64,000 bases of DNA, from positions 28,088,001-28,152,000 of the forward strand of contig NW_024704742.1 of NCBI RefSeq assembly GCF_018977255.1, in the 5' to 3' direction. This DNA is from Callorhinchus milii. Taxonomy: Eukaryota. This document shows, one piece after another, positions 1-61,625 of the stretch (within the stretch, counting starts at the first letter, position 1; every line of letters starts with the position of its first letter). A model generated the notes under the pieces. It searched no databases. It was given only the letters and a program-made list of their open reading frames with translations, and was not told the DNA's origin. The position numbers and the translations under genes are program-made.

Positions 1-2305
1 CTTTCTCTGCTCCAAGGAGAATAATCCTAGCTTCTCGAGCCTCTCCTGATAACTGAAGTCCCTCATTCCTGGTACCATCCTGGTAAATCTCCTTTGAACC
101 ACTTCACTGCTTTGACATTCTTCTTAAAGTGTGGTACCGAGAACTGAAAACAGTACTTTAGCTGAGGTCTAACCAGTGTTTTATAAGGTTCGTCATAACT
201 TCCTACTTTTTTATTCTACACCCCTGTGTATAAAGTCTAGTATCCCATATGCTTTTTTCACAGCTTTATCTACCTGTCCTGCCACATTAAAAGATTTACT
301 TATACGAACCCCGGGTCTCTCTGTTCCTTCACCCCCTTTAAGATTGTACCATCAGCTTATATTGCCTCTCCTCATTTTTCCTCCCAAAATGCATCACTTT
401 GCATTTCTCCACATTAAACTTCACCTGCCACATGTCTGCCCATTTTACCAGTCTGTCTATGTCCTCTTGCAGTTTGCTACTATCCTCACTGTTTACTACT
501 TTTTCTAGTTTAGTACCATCCGCAAACTTGGAAATTGTACTCCCTATACCTAAGTCCAGGTCATTTATATAGATCAAAAACAGCAGTGGTCCCAATACCG
601 ACCCCTGGGGGACACCACTGCACACTTCCCTCCAGTCAGAAAAACAATCGTTCACCACCACTCTGTGCTTTCTGTCTCTCAGCCAGTTCTGTATCCATGC
701 TGCCACTGTCCTTTAATACCATCGGCTTCTATTTTGTTTACAAGTCTCTTATGTGGCACTTTATCAAGTGCCTTTTGAAAATCCATATAAACAACACCAA
801 CTGCACTACGTTCATCCACCCACTCTGTTCTTCATCAAAAAACTATCAGGTTTGTTAGACCTGATTTGCCTTTTGGCTGTCCTTTATTAATCCATACTTT
901 TCGAAGTGAAAATTTATTTTGTCCCGGATTATAGTCCCTAGAAGTTTCCCCACTATTGACGTTAGGCTGATTGGCCTGTAGTTCCCGGGTTTATCCTATG
1001 GCCCCTTTTTGTACAGGGGAGTAACATTTGCAATCCTCCAATCCTCTGGCACCATCTCGTGTCCAAGGAGGATTCAAAGATTGTGACAAAAGCCTCCGTT
1101 ATTCCCACCCTTACTTCCCTCAGTAACCTAGGATGCATCCCATCTGGACCAGGTGGCTTATCTACCTTGAGCACCGATAACCTTTTTAGTACCTCCTCTC
1201 GGTTTATCTTTATCTTATCCAATTTTTTTAGCCTCTCCTCCGATACTGCAGCATTGGCTGCATCCTTTTCTTTTGTGAAGACAGATGCAAAGTGCTCATT
1301 CAGTACATCAGCCATGCCCTCTGCCTCCACAAGAAGATTTCCTCTTTGGTCCCTAATTGTACCCACCCTACTTTTGACTAACCTTTTATTCTTCATATGC
1401 TTATAAAATTCCTTAGAGTCCCCTTTTATGTTACCCGCTAATCTTTTCTCATACAATCTCTTTGCCCCTCTTATTACCTTTTTCAGTTCTCGTCTGTACT
1501 CCTGAGGATTGCAAGACTATATTCTATTTGATTATCTTTTGTATTTTGGACCTGACATTTATCATAAGCCTCCTTTTTCTATTTTATTTTAATCTCAATT
1601 TCCTTATTCATCCAGGGAGGTTTGGATGCCCTACCTTTTCCCTTTGTGGGAATGTATTTGTTCTGTCCCTGAACTATCTTCTCCTTGAAGGCTTCCCATT
1701 GCTCATTAGCTGTTTTACCTGCCAATCTTTCTTTCCAGTCCACCTTGGCTAGGTCCCTTTTTAACTCACTGAAATTAACCCTCTTCAAGTTGAGTATCTT
1801 CACCTTTGATTGTTCCGCTAAGTTTAATGATGTTGTGATCACTGTTGTCCAGATGCTCTCTTACAGGAACCTGCTTCACTTGGCCCACTTAATTCCCCAG
1901 AACTAGATCCAGCATTGTTTTCTTCCTCATTGGGCTGGAAGCACACTGATCCAGAAAGGTATCCTGCACACATTTCAGGAATCCTTCCCCCTCCTTGCCC
2001 TTTACACTGTTATTTTGCCAGTCTATGTTAGGATAATTGAAATCCCCGATTATCACTACTCTATTGGTTTTGCATCTTTCTGAAATCTGACAGATTTGTC
2101 AGATTTGCTCATCTATCTTTGGTGGATTTGGTGGTCTTGAGTATACACCTAACAGAGTAACAGCTCCTTTTCTGCTCCTTAACTCTAACCAAATAGATTG
2201 TGTTTTTGGACCTTCTAGCACATTGTCTCTTTCCAGGGCAATAACCGTGTCGTTAATCAATATTGCCAGCCCCCCCCCTTTTTTCCTTCCCTATCCCTCC
2301 TAAAT
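1..2305 (-). mobile_element. CR1 LINE ORF2 (endonuclease + reverse transcriptase), degenerate; 3' end runs off the window
   Basis: RT motifs GVPQGSVLGPLLFLIYINDLD, SKFADGTKL, KPPGPDGMHPRLLRE in ORFs 338-706 and 962-1456; many frameshifts. Confidence 0.95.
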
Positions 2306-13064: not shown

Positions 13065-13860
13065 CTATCACCCTGTTCCTTGCTTGGCTCCCTATCCCCC
13101 AGCAGATCGAATTCAAGATCTTCTTAATTACCTTTAAATTCTTCCCCTTCATCTGTACTAGAGAAACGAATATAATCCTACCGACGTGGTCATTCCCTTC
13201 ACTCAGCGAACACTGGCCACTCCATTTCCCCCACCCTATCCGACTCACCATCAGTAGGTGGGCTTTCAGTCATTCTGTTCCTCTGTGGAGTCCTGTAGCT
13301 CAGTGGTTAGAGCACTCGTCTTGTAAGTAAGACACCTGGGTTCAATTCCAGGCAGGGCGAAACCTTGGGCAAGTTTCTTTACTCCACATGCCTAATAATA
13401 ATCCCACCAAAAAAACAAAACAATTATAAATTGTTCATTTTCGATCCATGACTGTTTGTGGGACACTGCTGTGCGCAATTGCTGCTGTGTTTCGGCCACA
13501 AATATACAGTTCATTCACTTTACAGCATATTCTGTGAAGCGCTTTGAGATGTCCAGAAGATATGAAAAATGCTATATCAAAATGCAAGGATCATTATTAT
13601 TATTACTACCTTTGTGACTTCCTGTAATCTTACCGACCCAGTCATTCCCTTCACTCAGAAAGCACTGGCCTGCTTCATTTCCCCCACCCTGTCCGACTCA
13701 CCGTCAGTAGGTGGGCTTTCAGTCATTCTGTTCCTCTCTGTGGAACTCCATCCCAGAGTTTCTCTAACTCACTCCCTTTCCTCATTCAAGGTTTGTCTCA
13801 AGACGTACCTCTTTGACTGAGCTTTTGGTCATCTTAACCCTCCCACCTCCTTCGCCTCCC
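13065..13860 (+). mobile_element. Old L2 3' fragment hosting a SINE and a local duplication
   Basis: WLPIPQQIEFKI at the start; ggaactccatccc and aagacgtacctctttgac downstream. Confidence 0.75.
13286..13605 (+). mobile_element. tRNA-derived SINE, short subfamily A
   Basis: A box tagctcagtggttag, B box ggttcaattcc, (TAT)n tail. Confidence 0.92.
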
Positions 13861-22392: not shown

Positions 22393-22665
<273 letters not shown>

Positions 22666-32225: not shown

Positions 32226-32546
32226 TGGAGTCCTGTAGCTCAGTGATTAGAGCACTCGCTTTGCAAGCGAGGGACCTGAGTTCAATTCCAGGCAGAGGGC
32301 GAAACCTTGGGCAAGTTTTCTTACTCCACACGCCTAATAATAATCCCTCCAAAACCAAAAACAATAATAAATTGGTCATTTTCAATCTACAACTGTTTGT
32401 GGGACATTGCTGTGCGCAATTGGCTGCTGCGTTCGCCCACAAATATACAGTCAATTCACTTTACAGTGTGTTCTGTGAAGCGCTTTGGGACGTCCTCCTG
32501 ACGTGAAAAGCGCTATATCAAATGCAAGGATTATTATTATTATTAT
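32226..32546 (+). mobile_element. Young tRNA-derived SINE, subfamily A
   Basis: Near-intact cloverleaf (anticodon arm CTCGC-TTTGCAA-GCGAG), L2-like tail, (TAT)n. Confidence 0.95.
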
Positions 32547-34604: not shown

Positions 34605-34965
34605 GGAGTCCTGTAGCTCAGTGATTAGAGCACTCGCCTCACAAGTGAGAGGACCTGGGTTTGATTCCCGGACAGGACAAAGCATTGGGCAAGCCTCTGT
34701 TTATCTAACAGTAAGTAGGAATCCAGTTGTTAGTCAATTGGCGAATCGCTTTTCCGTGGGTAATAATTTCTTTAAAAAAATGTAGTCACTCAATCCCCGA
34801 CTGTTTGTGGGACACTGATGTGCGTAATTAGCTGCCGTGTTTCGTCCACAAAATATAGTCAATTCATTCTATACTATATTCTGTGAAGCGCTTTGAGACC
34901 TCTCAAAGATGTGATCAAACACTATATCAAATGCAAGTATTGTTATTATTATTATTATTATTACT
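34605..34965 (+). mobile_element. tRNA-derived SINE, subfamily B
   Basis: ggagtcctgtagctcagtgattagagc head, central segment, (TAT)n. Confidence 0.9.
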
Positions 34966-37399: not shown

Positions 37400-37597
37400 A
37401 GGTGGGTGATTCTCACTCTAGTTGGTTGGGAAAACAATCTGCCAATCGATTAACAAAGGGGTTGCCACTTACTGCTAGATAAGCAGAGGCTTGTGGAGTA
37501 AGGAAACTTGCCTAAGATTTCATCCTGCCCGGGAATCAATCCTGGGTCCTCTCGCTCGCAAAACAAGTACTCTAACCACTAAACTACAGGATTCCAC
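37400..37597 (-). mobile_element. SINE subfamily B, 5' half
   Basis: ctaaccactaaactacaggattcca; cttactgctagataagcagag. Confidence 0.8.
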
Positions 37598-37988: not shown

Positions 37989-38321
37989 TAGTTTGGTGCA
38001 TGTTTCTATTTGTGCCTAATACAGTCGGTACCTATTTTCACATTTTTATAGTACTTAATAAATAAATATATAGCAAATTTAAATTAATACACTTTTGTCT
38101 TGTAGTATTCACCAATTCTAGTATTAATAATAATAATTAACAATAATAATCCTTGCACTTGATATAGTGCATTTCAGGTTCGGAAAATGTTGAAAAGACA
38201 ATTTATTTGTAGGTGAAAAATCAGCAATGATTAGCAAGCAAAATTAACATACAATGTCAATACTCCCATGAGAATCCACGTCTGTAAACCAAACAATGAG
38301 TCTTACACGTAGCATATTGGA

Positions 38322-39340
38322 TGGTCTTCAACATCTATATGCTCCCTCTTGGTGATATCATCCGCAGACATGGGGTCAACTTCCACCTGTATGCGGATGA
38401 CACCCAACTCTACCTCTCTGCCTCCACCCTTGACTCCAGGACCACTGCTGTGCTTACAGAATGTCTGTCAGACATCAAGTCCTGGATGAGAGCTAACTTT
38501 CTACTGTTGAACGTCAACAAGACTGAGGCTCTACTGATTGGATCCTGTCAGCGCCTCCAAACCTCAGGCGCTGTCATGACAGCATCACCATCCACGGAAG
38601 CGCACTCCACCTCACTGAGCCAGTCCGGAATCTTGGCATCTTGTTTGACCCTCAATTATCCTTTCTACCCCACATGCATGCCATGACCCGCTCTGCCTTA
38701 CTCCACCTCGGCAACCTTGCCCGGCTCTGCCACTGTCTCACACTGCAGGCCACCGAGACTCACACGTGCATTCATTACATCGAGGCTTGACTATACAAAC
38801 TCCCTGCTTGTCAGCCTCCTCAAATCCTCTCTCCATAGGCTGCAGATCATCCAGAACTCTGCAGCCCGTGTCCTCTCCCGCACCAGGCTCCGTGACCCTA
38901 TCACCCTCATTCTCGCATGACTCCACTAGCTTCCCATCACACAGAGGATACAGTTCAAGATCCTGATCCTCAGCTTCAAAGCCCTCCATGGTCTTGCTCC
39001 CCCCTATCTCTGCAACCTCCTAACCCCCAACCAACCTGCCAGCTACCTCCGCTCAGCAGGGTGCGGCCTGCTTCACGTCCCCCACCTCGCCCATTCCAGT
39101 ACTCTGCCCCCACTCTCTGGAACTCCATCCCGCAGTCCCTCTGCCTGCCCCCTCCCTTGCCTCCTTCAAGACCCGTCTCAAGACCGTCCTCTTTGACCAT
39201 GCCTTCGGTCACCCTCCTTCCCCCCCTGCCCTTCACTTTTCCTGATCCCGACCCCAGCTCAGGTCACTGATTGTCCAGCACCTTGGGACGTCCTCCCAAC
39301 ATGAAAGGTATGATGCAAATGTAATTTAGTTGTTTGTTGT
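38322..39340 (+). mobile_element. 5'-truncated L2 (RT C-terminal half to tail)
   Basis: FNIYMLPLGDIIRRHGVNFHLYADDTQLY. Confidence 0.95.
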
Positions 39341-47411: not shown

Positions 47412-47788
47412 TGGAGTCCTGTAGCTCAGTGGTTCGAGGACTCACCTCACAAGCAAGAGGACCTGGGTTTGATTCCCAGCAGGGTGAAAAGTTGGGCAAG
47501 TGTCCTTACTCCACGCGCCTGTTTAATTAGCAGTAAATAGGAACCCAGTCATTAGTCAAATGGCAGATCGCTTTTCCGGTGGTAATAATCCCTTCAAAAT
47601 AAATAAAAAGAATTTGGCCACTCAATCCAAGACTGTTCATGGGACACTGCTGTGCACAATTCGCTGCCGCGTTTCACCCACAAAATATACTGCCAATTCC
47701 CTAAACAGTATATTCTATGAGGCGCTTTGAGACCAAAGACGTGATAAGTCGTTATATCAAATGCAAGGATTATTATTATTATCATCAT
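47412..47788 (+). mobile_element. tRNA-derived SINE, subfamily B
   Basis: Full head, central segment and tail. Confidence 0.9.
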
Positions 47789-52122: not shown

Positions 52123-54280
52123 GTTTACAGAGAGAACTCAGATATTCAGCCAAGTGTTTCAGCTTGGGAGATGAATGCACTGTGAACAGAACTTTCAATC
52201 TATAATATAGGAGTTTCATTATAAATCACTCGCACATGGAAAAGATTAGGGCCAAAATCAAAAGTGTAGGAAGCAAGGAAGAGACAGGTGTTGCATCTGG
52301 TGTGGTTGCAGGACAAAGTGTTTTTTTGTTCAGTTTGTGGTGCCTTTAGCCAGGGTAACACCATATGCTCAGGATTGATGTTTTTTTGTAAGTCTTTTCC
52401 CAGTGGGTTTGGATGGAATGCAGTACACAGCTGCAGACGGGACCAAAGCAGTTTATTAAAACACAATCAAATGGTCAGTAGGCGATTTACTTTCCTTACA
52501 GAATTTACCAAATGTTACTCTGCAGGCAATTTGCTTGTTATATAGTGCTATACATGGCTTAACATGATATTGATACATTTTCCAGAAGCTGGGCTGATGC
52601 TTCAGGCCTGACTGTGTTACAATTACAGGCCAGACCCAAGACTGAAGCCTCAGGTTTGGTTCTGTCAAATTGAGTTAAAACTAGACAGAAAGAGAGAGGA
52701 AGGAAGGAAGGCAAAATAGAGCCAGGTCAACTCTACAGGGATGAGAAACGGGCAACAACAAACAAGAGAGGTGAAAAGCTTGTTGTCCCTCAAGCCCGTC
52801 ATACAAATATGAATTGACCAGAATTGATGCATATTATCAATCTTACCAAAACCGAATCATTTTCTGCATGTGTATCGATCATAACTGTAACCTTGAAATG
52901 GCAGCAGACTTTCCTTGGAAAACAGATGTTGGCTCTTCATCCATTACCTAATGACACCCTGAGGTGCTATTATGGTAGAGTATTTTTCTTTGCTACAAGA
53001 TGGGGCTTTGACTCCAGCCTCGCAATCACATCCTTGGATTTATATAGGTTTAAAAACGTATTTCAGCCTGAACAAAAGTTTAGAAAAGTTATAAAAGGGA
53101 AGAATGAAATAGGTTAAAAAAAAAGGAGAGAGAATAAAGTAGTTGAGGAAATGGAGCAAATAGAAAAATACTATGTATGTAAATATAATAGGAGGAGCAG
53201 AAGTGAAGTATTGATTTTTATACATTTATGTTAATCCATCAATGGATATACCATCAGTGGCCGTACCTTGAACCACTAACCTCTGGAACCCTCTGCCATA
53301 ATCCCTCTGCCTCAACCCTCTTTAATTATCCTTAAATGCCCCATTTGACCGTGCTTATTATCAGCTCCCCCTTCTCCTTTGCTTGGCATCCAACCCACCA
53401 CTGTGCATCGCTATGAGATGCTATCCTACATGAAGGACGCTATATGAAAGCAAGTCACTGTTGTTTGAAAGTGTGTTTTTCAGAATCTCCTATCTCTGAG
53501 GGTGGTCCAAAGGCCCAAGGAATCTCAGAATCTTATATTTTCTGCAGCTCTAAAAAAAGAGATTAAGTAAATTTGGGAATTTTCAAATTTTTGCCAGGGG
53601 CCTCCTTTATCTAAAGTCTAATTGTAATTACTAAAACTACTAATAAAAAATAATTATTGCACTTGACATAGCATTTATAAGATCAAAGAGTCTCAAAGCA
53701 ATTCACTGGGAATTCCAGCCAAGTATAGTAACTGTGTATTTGTGACAAATGTTGCATCTGTTTTGTGTACCGCAAGATCCTATAAACAATTGTGGAATTT
53801 GTGATCAATTTTTCTAGAGGAATGTTGTCCAGGACTCTAGGAAGAGGTCCCTTCTCATTTTGAATATAGGATACTATATTATAATAATAATTATATTATT
53901 ATTACTATTGTTAGTACTGTAAGCTGAAACATACATGCCTGCTTGGCTCAGAAACATAGGAGATTCCCCAGACCTGACTGTAATCTAAATATGGAAGAAG
54001 TGTGTTAGCCTTGCTCGGTTGTTAGCATTCTCACCTCTGAGTCAGAAGGTTGTGGGTTCAAGGCCCATGTTGGGACTTGGACCTCATGTAGTCCAGGCTG
54101 ATACTTCAATTCGGTCCTGTGGAGGTGAATGGTGCTGTATTATTGGAGGCACCGTTCTTCATATGAAACATTAAACTAAGTTCTGGAATCCTGTTCAGGT
54201 GGACGTTAAAGATCCCATGGAACAACTCAAAAATGAAGGATGTTTCTCCCTGTGTCCTGGCCAACAATCCACAGAATAAA

Positions 54281-55250
54281 CAAAATGCACCATACTGCAG
54301 ATGCTGGAAATCTGAAGCAAAAACAAAAGTTGCTGGGAACACTCAGCAGGTCAGGCAACATCTATGGAGAAAGGAAAGTGAGTCAACATTTCAGGTCCAT
54401 GACCCTTCCATCAGAACTGGGGCAGGTTGAGAGGGAGAGGCTTTTAAGGGCTAACAAAGAGGGGGGAGGCAGGGCAAGGAAGACAAAGGAGAAAATGGGG
54501 TAGAGGACAGGGGATGATGGGTTAAAGCGGTGTTCATGTTGCAAAACAAAGTGGGGATTGCAGCAAAGCAGGGGAAAAGAGGTGTTAATACTACAGAACA
54601 AACGTGGGAAAATTGCAGCAAGACAGGCAGACCAGAGAGAGAAATTATATGTCTGGGACCAAGATGATATGATAATGGTCACAGACGAGGGAGAGGGGGA
54701 AGATGAGCTGTTATGGTCTGAAATTGTTGAAATCAATATTGAGGCCAGAGGGCTGGAAGGTCCCTAGCAGCTAAATGAGGTGTTTTTCCTCGAGCTTGTG
54801 CTGTGGCTCATTGGAACAGCGTAGGAGACTGTGGATGGAGAGGTCAGAGTGCGAGTGGGAGGGAGAGTTGAAGTGGCATTACCATATCATCTTGGTCCCA
54901 GACACACTTTTTCTCTCTCTAGTCTGCCTATCTTGCTACAATTTTCCCCCCCTTTGTTTTGCAGTATTAATACCTCTATTCCCCTGCTTTGTTGCAATCC
55001 CCCCCTTTGTTTTGCATCATTAACACTGCTTTAACTTATCATCAGCTGCCCTCTACCCCATTTTCTCCATTGTTTTCCTTGCCCTGCCTCCCCCCTCTCT
55101 GTTTCCCTTTAAAAGCCTCTCCCTCCCAACCTGCCCCAGTTCTGATGAAGGGTCACGGACCCGAAACGTTGACTCACTTTCCTTTCTCCATAGATGTTGC
55201 CTGACCTGCTGAGTGTTCCCAGTGATTTCTGTTTTCATTTCACAAAGCCC
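54281..55250. mobile_element. Penelope-like element: minus-strand ORF end and 3' region followed by an inverted copy of the 3' region
   Basis: 54711-54878 (-) reads CHFNSPSHSHSDLSIHSLLRCSNEPQHKLEEKHLI*LLGTFQPSGLNIDFNNFRP* (C-terminus of the GIY-YIG endonuclease region); about 54322-54671 is the reverse complement of about 54883-55237. Confidence 0.88.
55138..55174 (+). ncRNA. Minimal type I hammerhead ribozyme motif of the Penelope repeat
   Basis: AGUU-CUGAUGA-A-GGGUC-ACG-GACCC-GAAAC-GUU-GACU: catalytic core, 5-bp stem II, palindromic ACGU stem III, 4-bp stem I. Confidence 0.72.
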
Positions 55251-55737
55251 CAGAATAAAATTGGTCATTCGCTTCATAACTGTTTGTTGGATATTATTGT
55301 GGATATTACTGTACTACTACATTTACCTACAACTTACAAGGTCACTACCTTTTACAATGAAGTACTTTGGGATATCTTCCTGACGTGAAAGGTGCTCTAT
55401 CAAAATCAGAGGTTATTATATGAAGTGCTTAAGCCAACTGTGGTAAACGGCACAACTGTCCATCAAATAGGTTGAAATACTGCGAATAAAAGTCAAATTC
55501 TCTGCTCCCTGTGACTGACCTAACATGAATTTAAGAGAACTTAAGAGAACAGCTATGTTGTAGCTGTTTATGACTTCAGTCTTTCACTAATACTTATATG
55601 AATCCTTATATTTCATATAGTGCTTTTCACATTGGTAGTACATCTCAAATCATAGAATTTATTGTAAATTAGAATGACTGTGTATTTCATAGGCAAATGC
55701 TCCAGCCAGTTTGTGCAGGGCTATTTCCCACAAATGG

Positions 55738-56061
55738 TTATAATAATAATGATAATAATCCTTACATTTGACATAGTGTTTTTCACGTCTTCTCGACGTC
55801 TCAAATTGCTTCGCAGAATAGACTGTAAAGTGAATTGATCGTATATTCGTGGGCGAAACGCGACAGACAATTGCGCACAGCAGTGTCCCACAAACAGTCG
55901 TGGATTGAAAATGACCAATTTATTATTGCTTTGTTTTGGAGGGATTATTATTCGGCGTGTGGAGTAAGGAAACTTGCCCAAGATTTCGCCCTGCCTGGAA
56001 TTGAACCCAGGTGTCTCGCTTGCAAGGCGAGTGTTTTTACCACTGAGCTACAGGACTTCAC
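55738..56061 (-). mobile_element. tRNA-derived SINE, subfamily A
   Basis: Reverse complement of the 32226-type element; tail loop GAGAA. Confidence 0.92.
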
Positions 56062-56280: not shown

Positions 56281-57374
56281 AATGCAACAAAACTTTTAGC
56301 AACAAAGATAATTCCCACCAATAATAAATTATCACATTGCATGTTTTTGAACTCTTTGGTGTTCAAAGTTGTATCTTGCAGAGCCTTGCTTCTTAAGAAA
56401 TCCAATATGTAACCATTTCCAACAGGACTGTTTAATGAGGAATCGGGGAGTCCGTCACATTGACTGACAGGATCTACTTTTGCATCAGAATTTCCATGAG
56501 TCAGTGTGACGTGCGTTATGTATTTCCGATTAAATAACGAGGTCCACTTGTATTCTCTACTAAGCAATCTCATTCAAAATAGCCTCTTAAAGCACAGCCC
56601 CCGTTAACCATTGAAATTGACAGCACACGGGAAGGCCATTTGTCCTGTCATGTCTGAGCTGGTTGTTTGAAAAGAGCAATCCATTCAGTTCAAGTTACCT
56701 GTTTTTTCTCTAAACATCTGCAAATTACACCTTTTACACATCTAATTCCCTCTTGGCAGCTGATATGGATTCTGCCTCAACCATCGCACCCGGCTAGACA
56801 CTCCATCCTGACAAATATGTGCTAAATACCGAATAAGCTGAATATAATGAGACTAGGCTAAATCCGATGTTTAGTGCTTAGCGTGAACTCCTTTGACTTT
56901 TCTAATTCTGGAACAAGCAGACGATTAAAATGGCTTATTTAAAATAGGATGTATGGGCAAAGTATGGTGTGTTGGCTTGAAACATTGAGCCATGACTCAG
57001 CATCCCACAAATTTCTTCTTCCCCACAATTTTCCCGAAAGACAGTAAATTTCCTACGTTAACTCTAGTATCTGAAGAAGCCTTGCAATTTACTGGCTGCA
57101 TTAAACAATTTTAGAGGGTGATGCATTACTCCCTTTAGATGGTTTCTCGTGGCAGCTCCATAGCAAGGATGGTCAGCAAGGAAAGAGATAGTTTGTCTCG
57201 ACTCCTCATCCATTATAAAATGTATGTTAAAATAGAAGGTAAACTGTGTTACACATTGTTATCGCACCACATACTGCATTTGCCACCCATAGAGTGAAAT
57301 AGTGCAAAAAGTTTTTTTTGTGAGATTTGCAATCCATTCATCATGTATCATATATTACTTACATATATTTATGT

Positions 57375-58925
57375 TACAGTAACTCTGGCACAAATCTTTC
57401 AAAAATCACTGAATACTGGAGAGCTGCCAGGGGATTGGAGAAAGTCAGATGTTACTCCTATTTTTAAGAAAGATAACAAAAATGACCCAGGACACTACAG
57501 ACTAGTAAGTTTGACGTCCATTGTGGGTAAAATTATGGCAACTCTAATTCAGGATAAAATCATGGAGCATCTGGACAGAAATAAAAATATAAATGATAGT
57601 CAATTTGGGTTCATGAAAGGGAGGTCTTGCCAATCTAATTTACTGGTTTTCCTTGACGGTGTGACAAGGGAGCTGGATAATGCTGTTGACGTTGCATATC
57701 TGGATTTCAGTAAGGCCTTTGATACAGTTCCTCTTGAGAGGCTGGTACTGAAAGTAAAGAAAGCGGAATCAGTTGAGTTATATTACAATGGATGTGCAAC
57801 TGGTTGACCGCAACCCAGAGGGTGGTGGTACAGGGAATGTCATCAGACTGGGAAAATGTTACCGTGGAGTTCCACAAGGGCTGTTTTGGGACCTCTTTTG
57901 TTTAATATTTTTATAAATGATCTGGAACTAGGAGTCGCAAGCACTGTGGTTAAATCTGCAGAAGGCACCAAGCTAATGAATGTGGTAGATTGCGAAGCTG
58001 AACAAGGTTCCAGGAGCATTTGAACATACTTGGGAATTGGGCAGATTGGTGGCAGATGGAATTCAATGTGGAGAAATGCAGGCAGATGGAGTTAGGTTAG
58101 AAGATCAGCCATGATCTTATTGAATGGTGGGGCAGGCTCGAGGGACTGAATGGCCTACTCCTGCTCCTAATTCCTATGCTCTTATGTAAAGTACTTCACA
58201 TGGGGACAAAAGGCAAGGGACTATTATTTGAACAGAAGAAAAATAATATGTATGGAAAATGAAAAGGACCTGGGGTCCTGATTGACAATAAATTGAAGCT
58301 CTCCCAACAATGCTCTGAGGCAGTAAGTAAAGCAAACTAGATGCTAGGATGTATCATAAGATCAACAGCAAGCTGAAATAGTGAGGTAATCCTGCAACTG
58401 TATAAATCATTGGTGAGACCATACTTGGAGTACTATGTAGAGTTCTGGCCACCACAGTACAAAAAAGGATATTGGAGAAATCAAGAAGATACAGAGGAGG
58501 GCAACCAAAATGAATGAGAGTATGGAGGGACTGTACTATGAGGAGCTACTAAGTAAATTGGGCATGTTCACACTGGAAAAGAGAAGATTGAGAGGCAACA
58601 TAATTGTTGTCTTTCAGATTCTAATGGGCCTTGACAATATAGATCATGACAGTTTGTTTCAACTTGTCCAGAATAGTAAAACTAGAGGACACGGCCTGTG
58701 ATTAAAAGGGGGCAAATTCGGAACGAATATACCCCAACAGGGAGATGGTTGAAGCAGGAAGTGTTGATTTTTTTCAAACGCATTAGATTAGATAGTTTTA
58801 GGAAATAACATGGGATTTACTACATAGGTAGTTTGGAATATATGTACATGCGACGGTCAGGAAGGTGAAAGGCGAACTAGATGGATCTTGTTTTTTTTTG
58901 TTTATCATTTCTTATGTTCTTATGT
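57375..58925 (+). mobile_element. CR1 ORF2 3' half (RT to tail) with a second CR1 tail nested at about 58081-58186
   Basis: IFQKSLNTGELPGDWRKSDVTPIFKK, QFGFMKGRSCQSNL, YLDFSKAFDTV, LEKRRLRG; tail ttcttatgttcttatg. Confidence 0.93.
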
Positions 58926-60342: not shown

Positions 60343-61625
60343 CAGCAAAATTACATTTGCAAACATTTGTATAACGCCATTCACGTCGGAAGGATGTCCC
60401 AAGGCGCTGAACAATCAGTGTTTTGGACCCAAACCGGTTGATCAGGATTGGGGAGGGCAGTGGGGGTAAGAAGGTGATCAAAGGCACGGTTGAAGAGGAG
60501 GGTCTTGAGACGGGTCTTGAAGGAGGCAAGGGAGGGGATGAGGCAGAGGGACTGTGGGGTGGAGTTCCAGAGGGTGGGGGCAGAGTGGCTGAAGGCCCGT
60601 CTGACAATGGTGGGGCGGCCGAGGCGGGGTTGTGAAGCAGGCTGGGTGTGAGCAGGTTGGTAGGGGAATAGGTGGTTGCAGAGGTAGGGGTGAGCAAGGC
60701 CACGGAGGGCTTTTAAGGAGAGGAAAAAGGATGTTGAACTGTATCCTCTGTGCGATGGGAAGCCAGTGGAGTCTGGCGAGGATGCAGGTGTTAGGGTCAT
60801 GGAGCCTGGTGTGGGAGAGGATAAGGGGCTGCAGAGTTCTGGATGATCTGCAGCTTATGGAGGGAGAAATTGGGGAGACTGACAAGCAGGGAGTTTGCAT
60901 AGACAAGACTGGATGTTGTGAATGCAAGTATGAGGCCTGTGGTTTGAGATGGTGCTGGAGCCGGGTGATGTTGCAGAGGTGCGGGAAGGTAGAGCAGATC
61001 ATGGCACGGATGTGGGGTTGAAAGGATAGTTGAGGGTCAAACAACACGCCGAGGTTCTGGACTGGCTCAGTGAGGTGGAGCGCGCATCCTTGGACGGTGA
61101 TCATGTCAGCGCCTGAGATTACAGGAGCCAATCAGGAGAGGCTCGGTCTTGTTGACGTTCAACTGGAGAAAGTTAGCTCTCATCCAGGACTTGATGTCTG
61201 ACAGACATTCTGTCAGCACAGCAGTGGTCCTGGAGTCGAGGGTGAAGGCAGAGAGATAGAGTTAGGTGTCATAATAATAATAATAATCCTTGCATTTGAT
61301 ATAGCGCTTTTCACGTCGGGAGGACGTCCCAAAGCACTTCACAGAACACACTGTAAAGTGAATTGACTGTATATTTGTGGGCGAACGCAGCAGCTAATTG
61401 TGCACAGCAATGTCCCACAAACAGTCGTAGATTGAAAATGACCAATTTATTATTGTTTTGGGGTTTTGGAGGGATTATTATTAGGCTCTGTGTGGAGTAA
61501 GGAAACTTGCCCAAGGTTTCGCCCTGCCTGGAACTGAACTCAGGTCTCTCGCTTGCAAAGCGAGTGCTCTAACCACTGAGCTAAAGGTCATCTGCATACA
61601 CGTGGAAGTTGACCCCATGTCGTGG
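60343..61625 (-). mobile_element. L2 RT C-terminal half, interrupted in the YADD motif by a young SINE
   Basis: QNLGVLFDPQLSF, LHWLPIAQRIQF; HVYADD|T split at 61272/61587. Confidence 0.92.
61273..61586 (-). mobile_element. Young SINE subfamily A, slightly 5'-truncated
   Basis: TSD GTCAT at 61268-61272 and 61587-61591; closely matches 32226-32546. Confidence 0.95.

Follow-up and report, generated by a model that had tools for sequence, protein, structure and literature searches.

Positions 55138-55174 on the plus strand of the DNA analysed here (a stretch of 64,000 nucleotides from Callorhinchus milii, referred to as the window) form a complete minimal type I hammerhead ribozyme of the kind carried by Penelope-like elements (PLEs). 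We consider it very probable that the motif comes from an endonuclease-bearing PLE, in which it is part of the 3'-terminal module, and that the copy in the window is a dead and old insertion. For the host gene, a DIAPH1-like formin, the motif is most likely irrelevant; it belongs to a repeat that has decayed inside an intron of great length. The motif reads AGUU-CUGAUGA-A-GGGUC-ACG-GACCC-GAAA-CGU-U/GACU, the slash marking the predicted cut, and is composed as follows (positions are those of the window).

55138-55141 (+), 5' strand of helix I, AGTT
55142-55148 (+), core box CTGATGA
55149 (+), extra unpaired A between positions 9 and 10.1
55150-55154 and 55158-55162 (+), helix II, GGGTC/GACCC, 5 bp, closed by a 3-nt loop, ACG
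55163-55166 (+), GAAA
55167-55169 (+), CGT, corresponding to C15.2, G16.2 and U16.1
55170 (+), position 17, a T (U17); predicted cut between 55170 and 55171
55171-55174 (+), 3' strand of helix I, GACT, 4 bp with 55138-55141, one of the pairs being U.G

Helix III is reduced to the pair A15.1-U16.1 around C15.2-G16.2, giving the palindrome ACGU at 55166-55169, and the pair at 10.1/11.1 is G55150-C55162. An earlier note on this DNA had described a minimal hammerhead on the sense strand; its strings and coordinates were right, and core, helix II and helix I are all present.

That such an arrangement has arisen without any ribozyme ancestry can be dismissed as practically impossible. A loose pattern (CTGATGA, 8-30 nucleotides, CGAAAC), which matches once in the window, does turn up at least once in 5 of 100 shuffled sequences, and the lack of any score with the Rfam models would also be in keeping with a chance match. 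The full descriptor, however, which demands the core, a helix II of at least 4 bp, GAAA, paired 15.2/16.2, U16.1, H17 and a helix I of at least 3 bp, has 55138-55174 as its sole match on both strands of the 64-kb window and finds none in 200 block shuffles. The motif is moreover the consensus of a repeat family, and a compensatory change between two subfamilies preserves it, so that the family data already refute a chance origin.

Confirmation by hammerhead covariance models, to which the earlier note had looked, did not come. The Rfam models for types I, II and III, HH9 and HH10 gave no match in the window at the gathering threshold, and nothing at E<=10 either in a piece of 1501 nt or in one of 76 nt. 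In our reading, these models miss the motif because they expect a helix III, which is absent here; the case illustrates that Rfam scans overlook minimal PLE hammerheads.

The motif lies in an insertion that consists of two 5'-truncated PLE copies arranged head to head and joined at 54877/54878. The following features were assigned to it.

~54277-54878 (-), left arm, the longer PLE copy, 602 nt, 5'-truncated
~54277-54319 (-), PLE tail extension TCAGATTTCCAGCATCTGCAG..., in the left arm only
54382-54419 (-), damaged hammerhead of the left arm, reading CTGATGGAAGGGTCATGGACCTGAAATGTTGAC
~54696-54875 (-), last ~60 codons of the GIY-YIG endonuclease ORF, within the left arm
54877-55242 (+), right arm, non-coding PLE 3' end, 366 nt, 5'-truncated, without the tail extension
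54313-55242 (no strand), inverted repeat of 930 bp with arms at 54313-54677 and 54877-55242

Over ungapped columns the arms are 88.7% identical; transitions account for 28 of the 41 mismatches, and 4 columns of the alignment contain a gap. As the left arm encodes the last ~60 codons of the ORF, what looks like a loop in the inverted repeat is just the surplus by which the longer copy exceeds the shorter one. In those passages of the PLE literature that were used for comparison (among them parts of PMC8557442, PMC2377424 and PMC4350176), PLE insertions are described as 5'-truncated, as being often accompanied by a second truncated copy that lies inverted and head to head with the first, and as bearing a tail of 30-40 bp at one end only. 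The insertion in the window shows these published traits and is thus one ordinary PLE insertion. A tandem duplication of ~53 nt in the PLE 3' untranslated region (TCCCCCCCTTTGTTTTGCA...) was also seen in both arms, at 54945-54973 and 54998-55026 (+) and mirrored at 54557-54572 and 54612-54627.

A damaged mirror copy had been announced at about 54380-54420 on the minus strand, and it was indeed found at 54382-54419. Its defects are an extra G inside the CUGAUGA box, C11.1>U, a C>U exchange in the loop, and C15.2>U, which destroys the CG palindrome. Three of the four differences between the motifs of the two arms are CpG to TpG changes. The only CpGs of the right arm are the three in its hammerhead, while the left arm has a single one, located elsewhere, and none is common to both. 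These counts are so small that chance alone suffices to account for one intact and one broken arm, which fits the chance CpG decay that the earlier note had allowed for.

From this anatomy, and from published PLE structures, we infer a single retrotransposition event in which target-primed reverse transcription, switching strands on the way, would have copied the 3' end of one PLE RNA two times, once in each orientation. The outcome would have been the 602-nt minus copy and the 366-nt plus copy, which meet at 54877/54878, and a tail extension confined to one end of the insertion. Since then the arms have diverged to their present identity and the left hammerhead has been deprived of an intact core and of its CpGs, while the right hammerhead has kept every defining position by chance, like about one in eight copies of the family.

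That family is large. Copy numbers were counted in the 991.5-Mb Callorhinchus milii assembly, where a 16-nt tail anchor has 5778 exact genome matches (none for the reversed control) and the last 166 nt of the right arm gave 3333 first-look candidates. The motif is situated ~70-100 nt from the family's 3' end. A search for the exact intact 35-nt motif that accepted any base at position 7 and in the loop returned 446 copies genome-wide, 341 belonging to the subfamily of the window (the window copy included) and 105 to a second one; the reversed motifs used as controls returned none. In the family consensus the box is CUGACGA, from which the CUGAUGA of the window differs by a CpG transition at the free position 7.

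To judge integrity, copies were sampled by the tail anchor, which lies outside the hammerhead; the first 100 listed places yielded 101 copies. The hammerhead stretch is present in 87 of the 101, and all 12 core positions are kept in 32. The number falls to 29 when at least 4 pairs of helix II are required as well, and to 17 when the CG (or another) palindrome at 15.2/16.2 is added; 12 copies are intact in every respect. The window copy surpasses 89 of the 101: its core (12 positions) and its helix II are complete, and it retains three CpGs as well as the CG palindrome. Measured against the average copy of the family, a yardstick proposed in the earlier note, it therefore belongs to the fully intact minority, but it is not special, as hundreds of exact intact copies exist genome-wide. 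The window locus shows no sign of selection on the hammerhead, its integrity being what chance would give according to both the sampled copies and the CpG tally.

The two subfamilies differ at 10.1/11.1 (G-C versus A-U) and at 1.1 (G versus A), and the second has the loop AUC. Among 43 rows the pair at 10.1/11.1 is GC in 26, AU in 8 and GU in 6. These subfamily changes are compensatory and, as differences between master copies, lend support to both helix II and helix I. The covariation score is 0.184 versus 0.153 +/- 0.013 and was reached by 5 of 500 shuffles, a modest support, since a single inherited event is involved. Copies of the second subfamily were seen at loci L045, L047, L054, L064, L074, L078, L089, L092 and L093.

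Longer copies extend upstream into an ORF, and in one of these the motif lies ~210 nt downstream of the ORF end. One longer copy has an open frame of 470 aa (P0121) that contains YIDD and a GIY-YIG-like VVYCIHCSRCGPLYIGES. Pfam gave no match at E<=0.01 for P0121 itself, and none for the short ORF fragments of locus L005. P0121 has 28 long relatives (E from 6e-119 to 2.5e-40) and is 43% identical to residues 486-900 of one of them, the 904-aa P0127, in which Pfam RVT_1 (389-576) and GIY-YIG (809-888) both score above the cut-offs. The nearest Atlas clusters of P0121 carry RVT_1, GIY-YIG and HTH_animal, which we take as a lead only. It is thus supported, by way of the longer relatives of P0121, that the family is an endonuclease-bearing PLE with a reverse transcriptase and a GIY-YIG domain at the C-terminus. 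The link of the motif with PLEs, drawn in the earlier note, is upheld by this ORF and by a minimal-hammerhead anatomy of PLE type.

All seven loci inspected for a full-length copy of the pLTR-ORF-pLTR form (L105-L111) proved to be truncated or inverted; with no full-length copy bearing direct pseudo-LTRs among them, the term "pLTR" is used by analogy. Among the copies seen, the longest open frame is the 470-aa one, and none is intact when compared with the ~890 aa of the relatives. Many copies are tiny head-to-head palindromes, always minus then plus, with anchors 78-181 nt apart (on C1, for example, 2986084/2986162, 4537535/4537629, 10597256/10597386 and 11916817/11916947). As these are frequent, the inverted form is the rule in this family and not a peculiarity of the window. 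Direct pairs of family members at 3.7 and 5.9 kb are unrelated short copies and not tandems. As a clean and countable example, a PLE hammerhead module is present in this one genome in thousands of dated copies.

The surroundings of the insertion contain one exon of the host gene, a set of matches to the tRNA model, and fragments of other elements.

22411-22662 (+), host exon of a DIAPH1-like formin, encoding a portion of its FH2 domain, Pfam E 5.5e-28
13289-13360, 32233-32295, 34608-34679 and 47415-47487 (+), tRNA-model matches, near-identical
37520-37593, 55986-56057 and 61519-61590 (-), tRNA-model matches, near-identical
341-712 (-), open frame with Pfam RVT_1, E 2.7e-12
38300-38683 (+), open frame with Pfam RVT_1, E 7.1e-08
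57298-57804 (+), open frame with Pfam RVT_1, E 1.4e-13

The exon has its best protein match, at 99% identity, in the diaphanous homolog 1-like protein of Callorhinchus milii, and mapping of that protein on the assembly places the next exon at C1:28238550. The element is therefore located in an intron of 127,887 nt, with the motif on the sense strand, as had been claimed. The seven tRNA-model matches (35.7-52.8 bits) are most likely the heads of a tRNA-derived SINE family, and the repeat at 55740-56000, adjacent to the element, is present again in the majority of the 36 loci retrieved. The three RVT_1 frames are other retroelement fragments in the intron and its flank, outside the PLE copy. Four sequence runs, represented by contigs whose origin from RNA is a guess, cover ~55150-55235 at the level of the family only, with next to no cover on the unique flank at 55300-55345.

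Although the motif lies on the sense strand of a host intron, self-cleavage of the DIAPH1-like pre-mRNA is unlikely. The part of the intron inside the window was scanned with the loose descriptor, and the ~86 kb downstream for the exact intact motif only. A second minimal hammerhead is absent from both strands of the 64-kb window by the full descriptor, the other family copy being antisense and broken, and from 25.2 to 29.2 Mb on C1 the exact intact motif does not occur a second time, so that the intron holds no further copy of it. The 961-nt RNA from 54290 to 55250 is predicted to fold into a single hairpin of 360 bp that leaves none of the bases of the hammerhead free, all of them pairing with the upstream arm (-661.2 kcal/mol, z -47.8). 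Secondary-structure energies of -14.5 kcal/mol for the double hammerhead versus -26.1 for the best dimer fold indicate that the former is not the favoured fold, weak evidence to which we attach little weight, as such monomer and dimer energies cannot judge the tertiary fold of a ribozyme. Activity of minimal hammerhead dimers is reportedly described by Lunse et al. 2017 too.

Cleavage is improbable because the motif is a monomer without helix III, no sense partner was found for it, and it would be buried in the hairpin; the earlier proposal of a potentially self-cleaving motif in the host pre-mRNA is for these reasons, and in view of the antisense upstream arm, not plausible. A lone monomer of this kind would need a second sense copy. 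Transcription, moreover, reaches the antisense arm before the motif, and the two are predicted to zip up, so that the present role of the motif for the host gene is probably nil. Since the upstream arm is antisense and pairs along 360 bp, including it in a construct should inhibit cleavage and not help it. In principle, a PLE protein or RNA provided in trans by another copy could supply what the monomer lacks, and folding during transcription could give the motif a brief interval before the hairpin closes.

An active ribozyme that cuts the 128-kb intron, be it unaided, helped by a PLE protein or paired in trans with RNA of other family copies, and so affects expression of the DIAPH1-like gene, would have in its favour that the defining core positions and helices are all intact on the sense strand, that partner RNA could come from hundreds of intact copies elsewhere, and that protein-assisted cleavage has been published for one PLE (in the part of PMC11167929 consulted). 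We nevertheless regard it as highly improbable: besides the missing helix III, the predicted burial and the lack of a sense partner in the window, the family looks old, with no intact ORF seen, and the integrity of the motif matches chance expectation. Furthermore, according to PMC4209133, a single minimal PLE hammerhead showed no cleavage in vitro, and dimers and trimers cleaved weakly.

The significance of the locus might alternatively reside in the inverted repeat of 930 bp, which could act as intronic double-stranded RNA and as a substrate for editing or small-RNA pathways. The predicted hairpin is very stable indeed, and the head-to-head form is common in the family; yet in published accounts, as far as their passages cover it, this form is a by-product of the manner in which PLEs insert, and there is no hint of selection. 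There is very little chance that this is what matters at the locus, and we retain the reading as a dead PLE copy.

A further feature of the family concerns the place at which its copies have their 5' ends. Sequences resembling a promoter are found directly upstream of the motif and at its start.

55108-55115 (+), TATA-like TTTAAAAG, at -30 to -23
55136-55142 (+), initiator-like CCAGTTC, with its A at 55138; overlaps the start of helix I

Compared with consensus sequences, TTTAAAAG and CCAGTTC resemble a TATA box and an initiator. Of the 101 sampled copies, 25 lose their similarity to the family at 55137-55139, 39 do so at 55135-55142, and just 2 around the predicted cleavage site (55169-55173); another 23 are long copies. 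TTAAAA at about -30 is preserved in the 17 long family copies listed, CCAGTTC spans the hot spot in long copies, and the axis of many of the short head-to-head palindromes coincides with the start of helix I. 5' ends at the equivalents of 55135-55142 were noted, for instance, at loci L010, L012, L015, L016, L019, L025, L029, L033, L034 and L036. For Drosophila Penelope, the literature passages at hand give a start site 46 nt before a 75-nt intron, the end of which abuts helix I.

The hot spot of 5' ends, the TATA- and initiator-like sites and the start in Drosophila Penelope together indicate that the copied RNA may have the hammerhead as its first 37 nt. We tentatively suggest, as a possibility that is clearly less likely to be right than wrong, that it forms the extreme 5' leader of the family RNA, which would start from the TATA-like and initiator-like sites at helix I, that the minimal unit copied by the PLE reverse transcriptase is this RNA of ~100 nt, made up of hammerhead and tail, and that the head-to-head palindromes arise where the enzyme reaches the 5' end and turns back. 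Such a position of the hammerhead was not met in the passages of the PLE literature compared here, and may exist in print. Apart from this suggestion, and as part of the reading as a PLE hammerhead that we consider very probable, the motif of the active element would have been located at the very 5' edge of a ~100-nt reverse-transcribed unit, and cleaved RNA would rarely, if ever, have been the template. If the leader interpretation is true, cleavage would strip the cap and 33 nt, and the 2 copies that start at the cleavage site, against 25 at the 5' edge, would mean that the ribozyme product is not the template for transposition. The hammerhead would then have a role other than processing of the 5' end of the template, such as a switch between translation and copying. 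The family copies would show where the copied RNAs began, uncleaved, which bears on what hammerheads do for PLEs.

It is another matter whether the right arm in the window is a transcription unit of its own, producing an intronic sense RNA from 55138/55139 with the hammerhead as its first 37 nt. The same observations speak for it: the TATA-like sequence and the initiator-like CCAGTTC with A at 55138, the TTAAAA kept in long copies, the 25 sampled copies that end at 55137-55139, and the Drosophila Penelope start site shortly upstream of the hammerhead, as given in part of the literature. We nonetheless find it improbable. The promoter evidence consists of consensus matches, whereas the published Penelope promoter is, in the passages seen, TATA-less and internal; the hot spot could instead mark a stop of the reverse transcriptase or a template switch; and the window copy is old and may be silenced. 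For the window itself we therefore keep to the reading as a dead PLE insertion, and it is with the known hammerheads of such elements that the motif compares best.

Minimal hammerheads of metazoan PLEs are characterised, in the part of PMC4209133 (Cervera and De la Pena 2014) consulted, by an extra base between 9 and 10.1, a G10.1-C11.1 pair, a palindromic 15.2/16.2, a short helix I of 4-5 bp and an enlarged helix II. The motif in the window agrees with them in its type I topology, conserved core, one-pair helix III and 4-bp helix I. It has C3 U4 G5 A6 N7 G8 A9...G12 A13 A14 as well as A15.1, U16.1 and H17, and shares the unpaired base between 9 and 10.1, G10.1-C11.1 and the palindromic C15.2-G16.2, a palindrome that allows a double hammerhead to be built from two copies. 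The same source describes hammerheads near the PLE end, genomes with thousands of truncated copies that are for the most part solitary or inverted, and consensus families with compensatory changes inside one genome, all of which recur here. A difference is that helix II has 5 bp, compared with 6-8 bp in the examples given there. The text of PMC4209133, so far as consulted, does not name the present family of a chimaera-like genome, and its supplementary figures may depict it among fish families.

The Poseidon element PAc of Anolis carolinensis offers a second comparison. According to the sections of PMC11167929 consulted, its hammerhead cut only when the protein was present, insertion in vitro could do without the hammerhead, and none of the reads had an end at the cleavage site. 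PAc and the present family are both EN+ PLEs with a hammerhead and a tail signature from internal initiation of reverse transcription, and for both there is no evidence in these data of cleaved RNA as the template. The ORF of PAc starts inside its hammerhead; a corresponding start at the ATG of the window motif was considered and rejected, since that frame stops after 19 codons.

Known vertebrate intronic hammerheads are likewise of type I and on the sense strand of an intron. They differ in being canonical, with loop-loop contacts, a stable fold, conservation at orthologous sites and detection by Rfam, while the motif in the window is minimal and repeat-borne, with no sign of conservation and no Rfam score. 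Animal non-LTR retrozymes, in the passages of PMC7229834 and bioRxiv 10.64898/2026.07.22.740005 consulted, are short, non-coding and provided with type I hammerheads, and are thought to depend on PLEs; the latter source reports that they are depleted from introns in Xenopus. Family copies of 97-104 nt, made up of the hammerhead plus tail, look like such non-autonomous units. Retrozymes, as described there, are direct tandem repeats that give rise to circular RNAs, whereas the family copies examined are single or inverted and never tandem; the window contains one inverted pair and no head-to-tail tandem. Taken together, these comparisons identify the motif in the window as one of a kind already known, carried here by a repeat that is ordinary and decayed.
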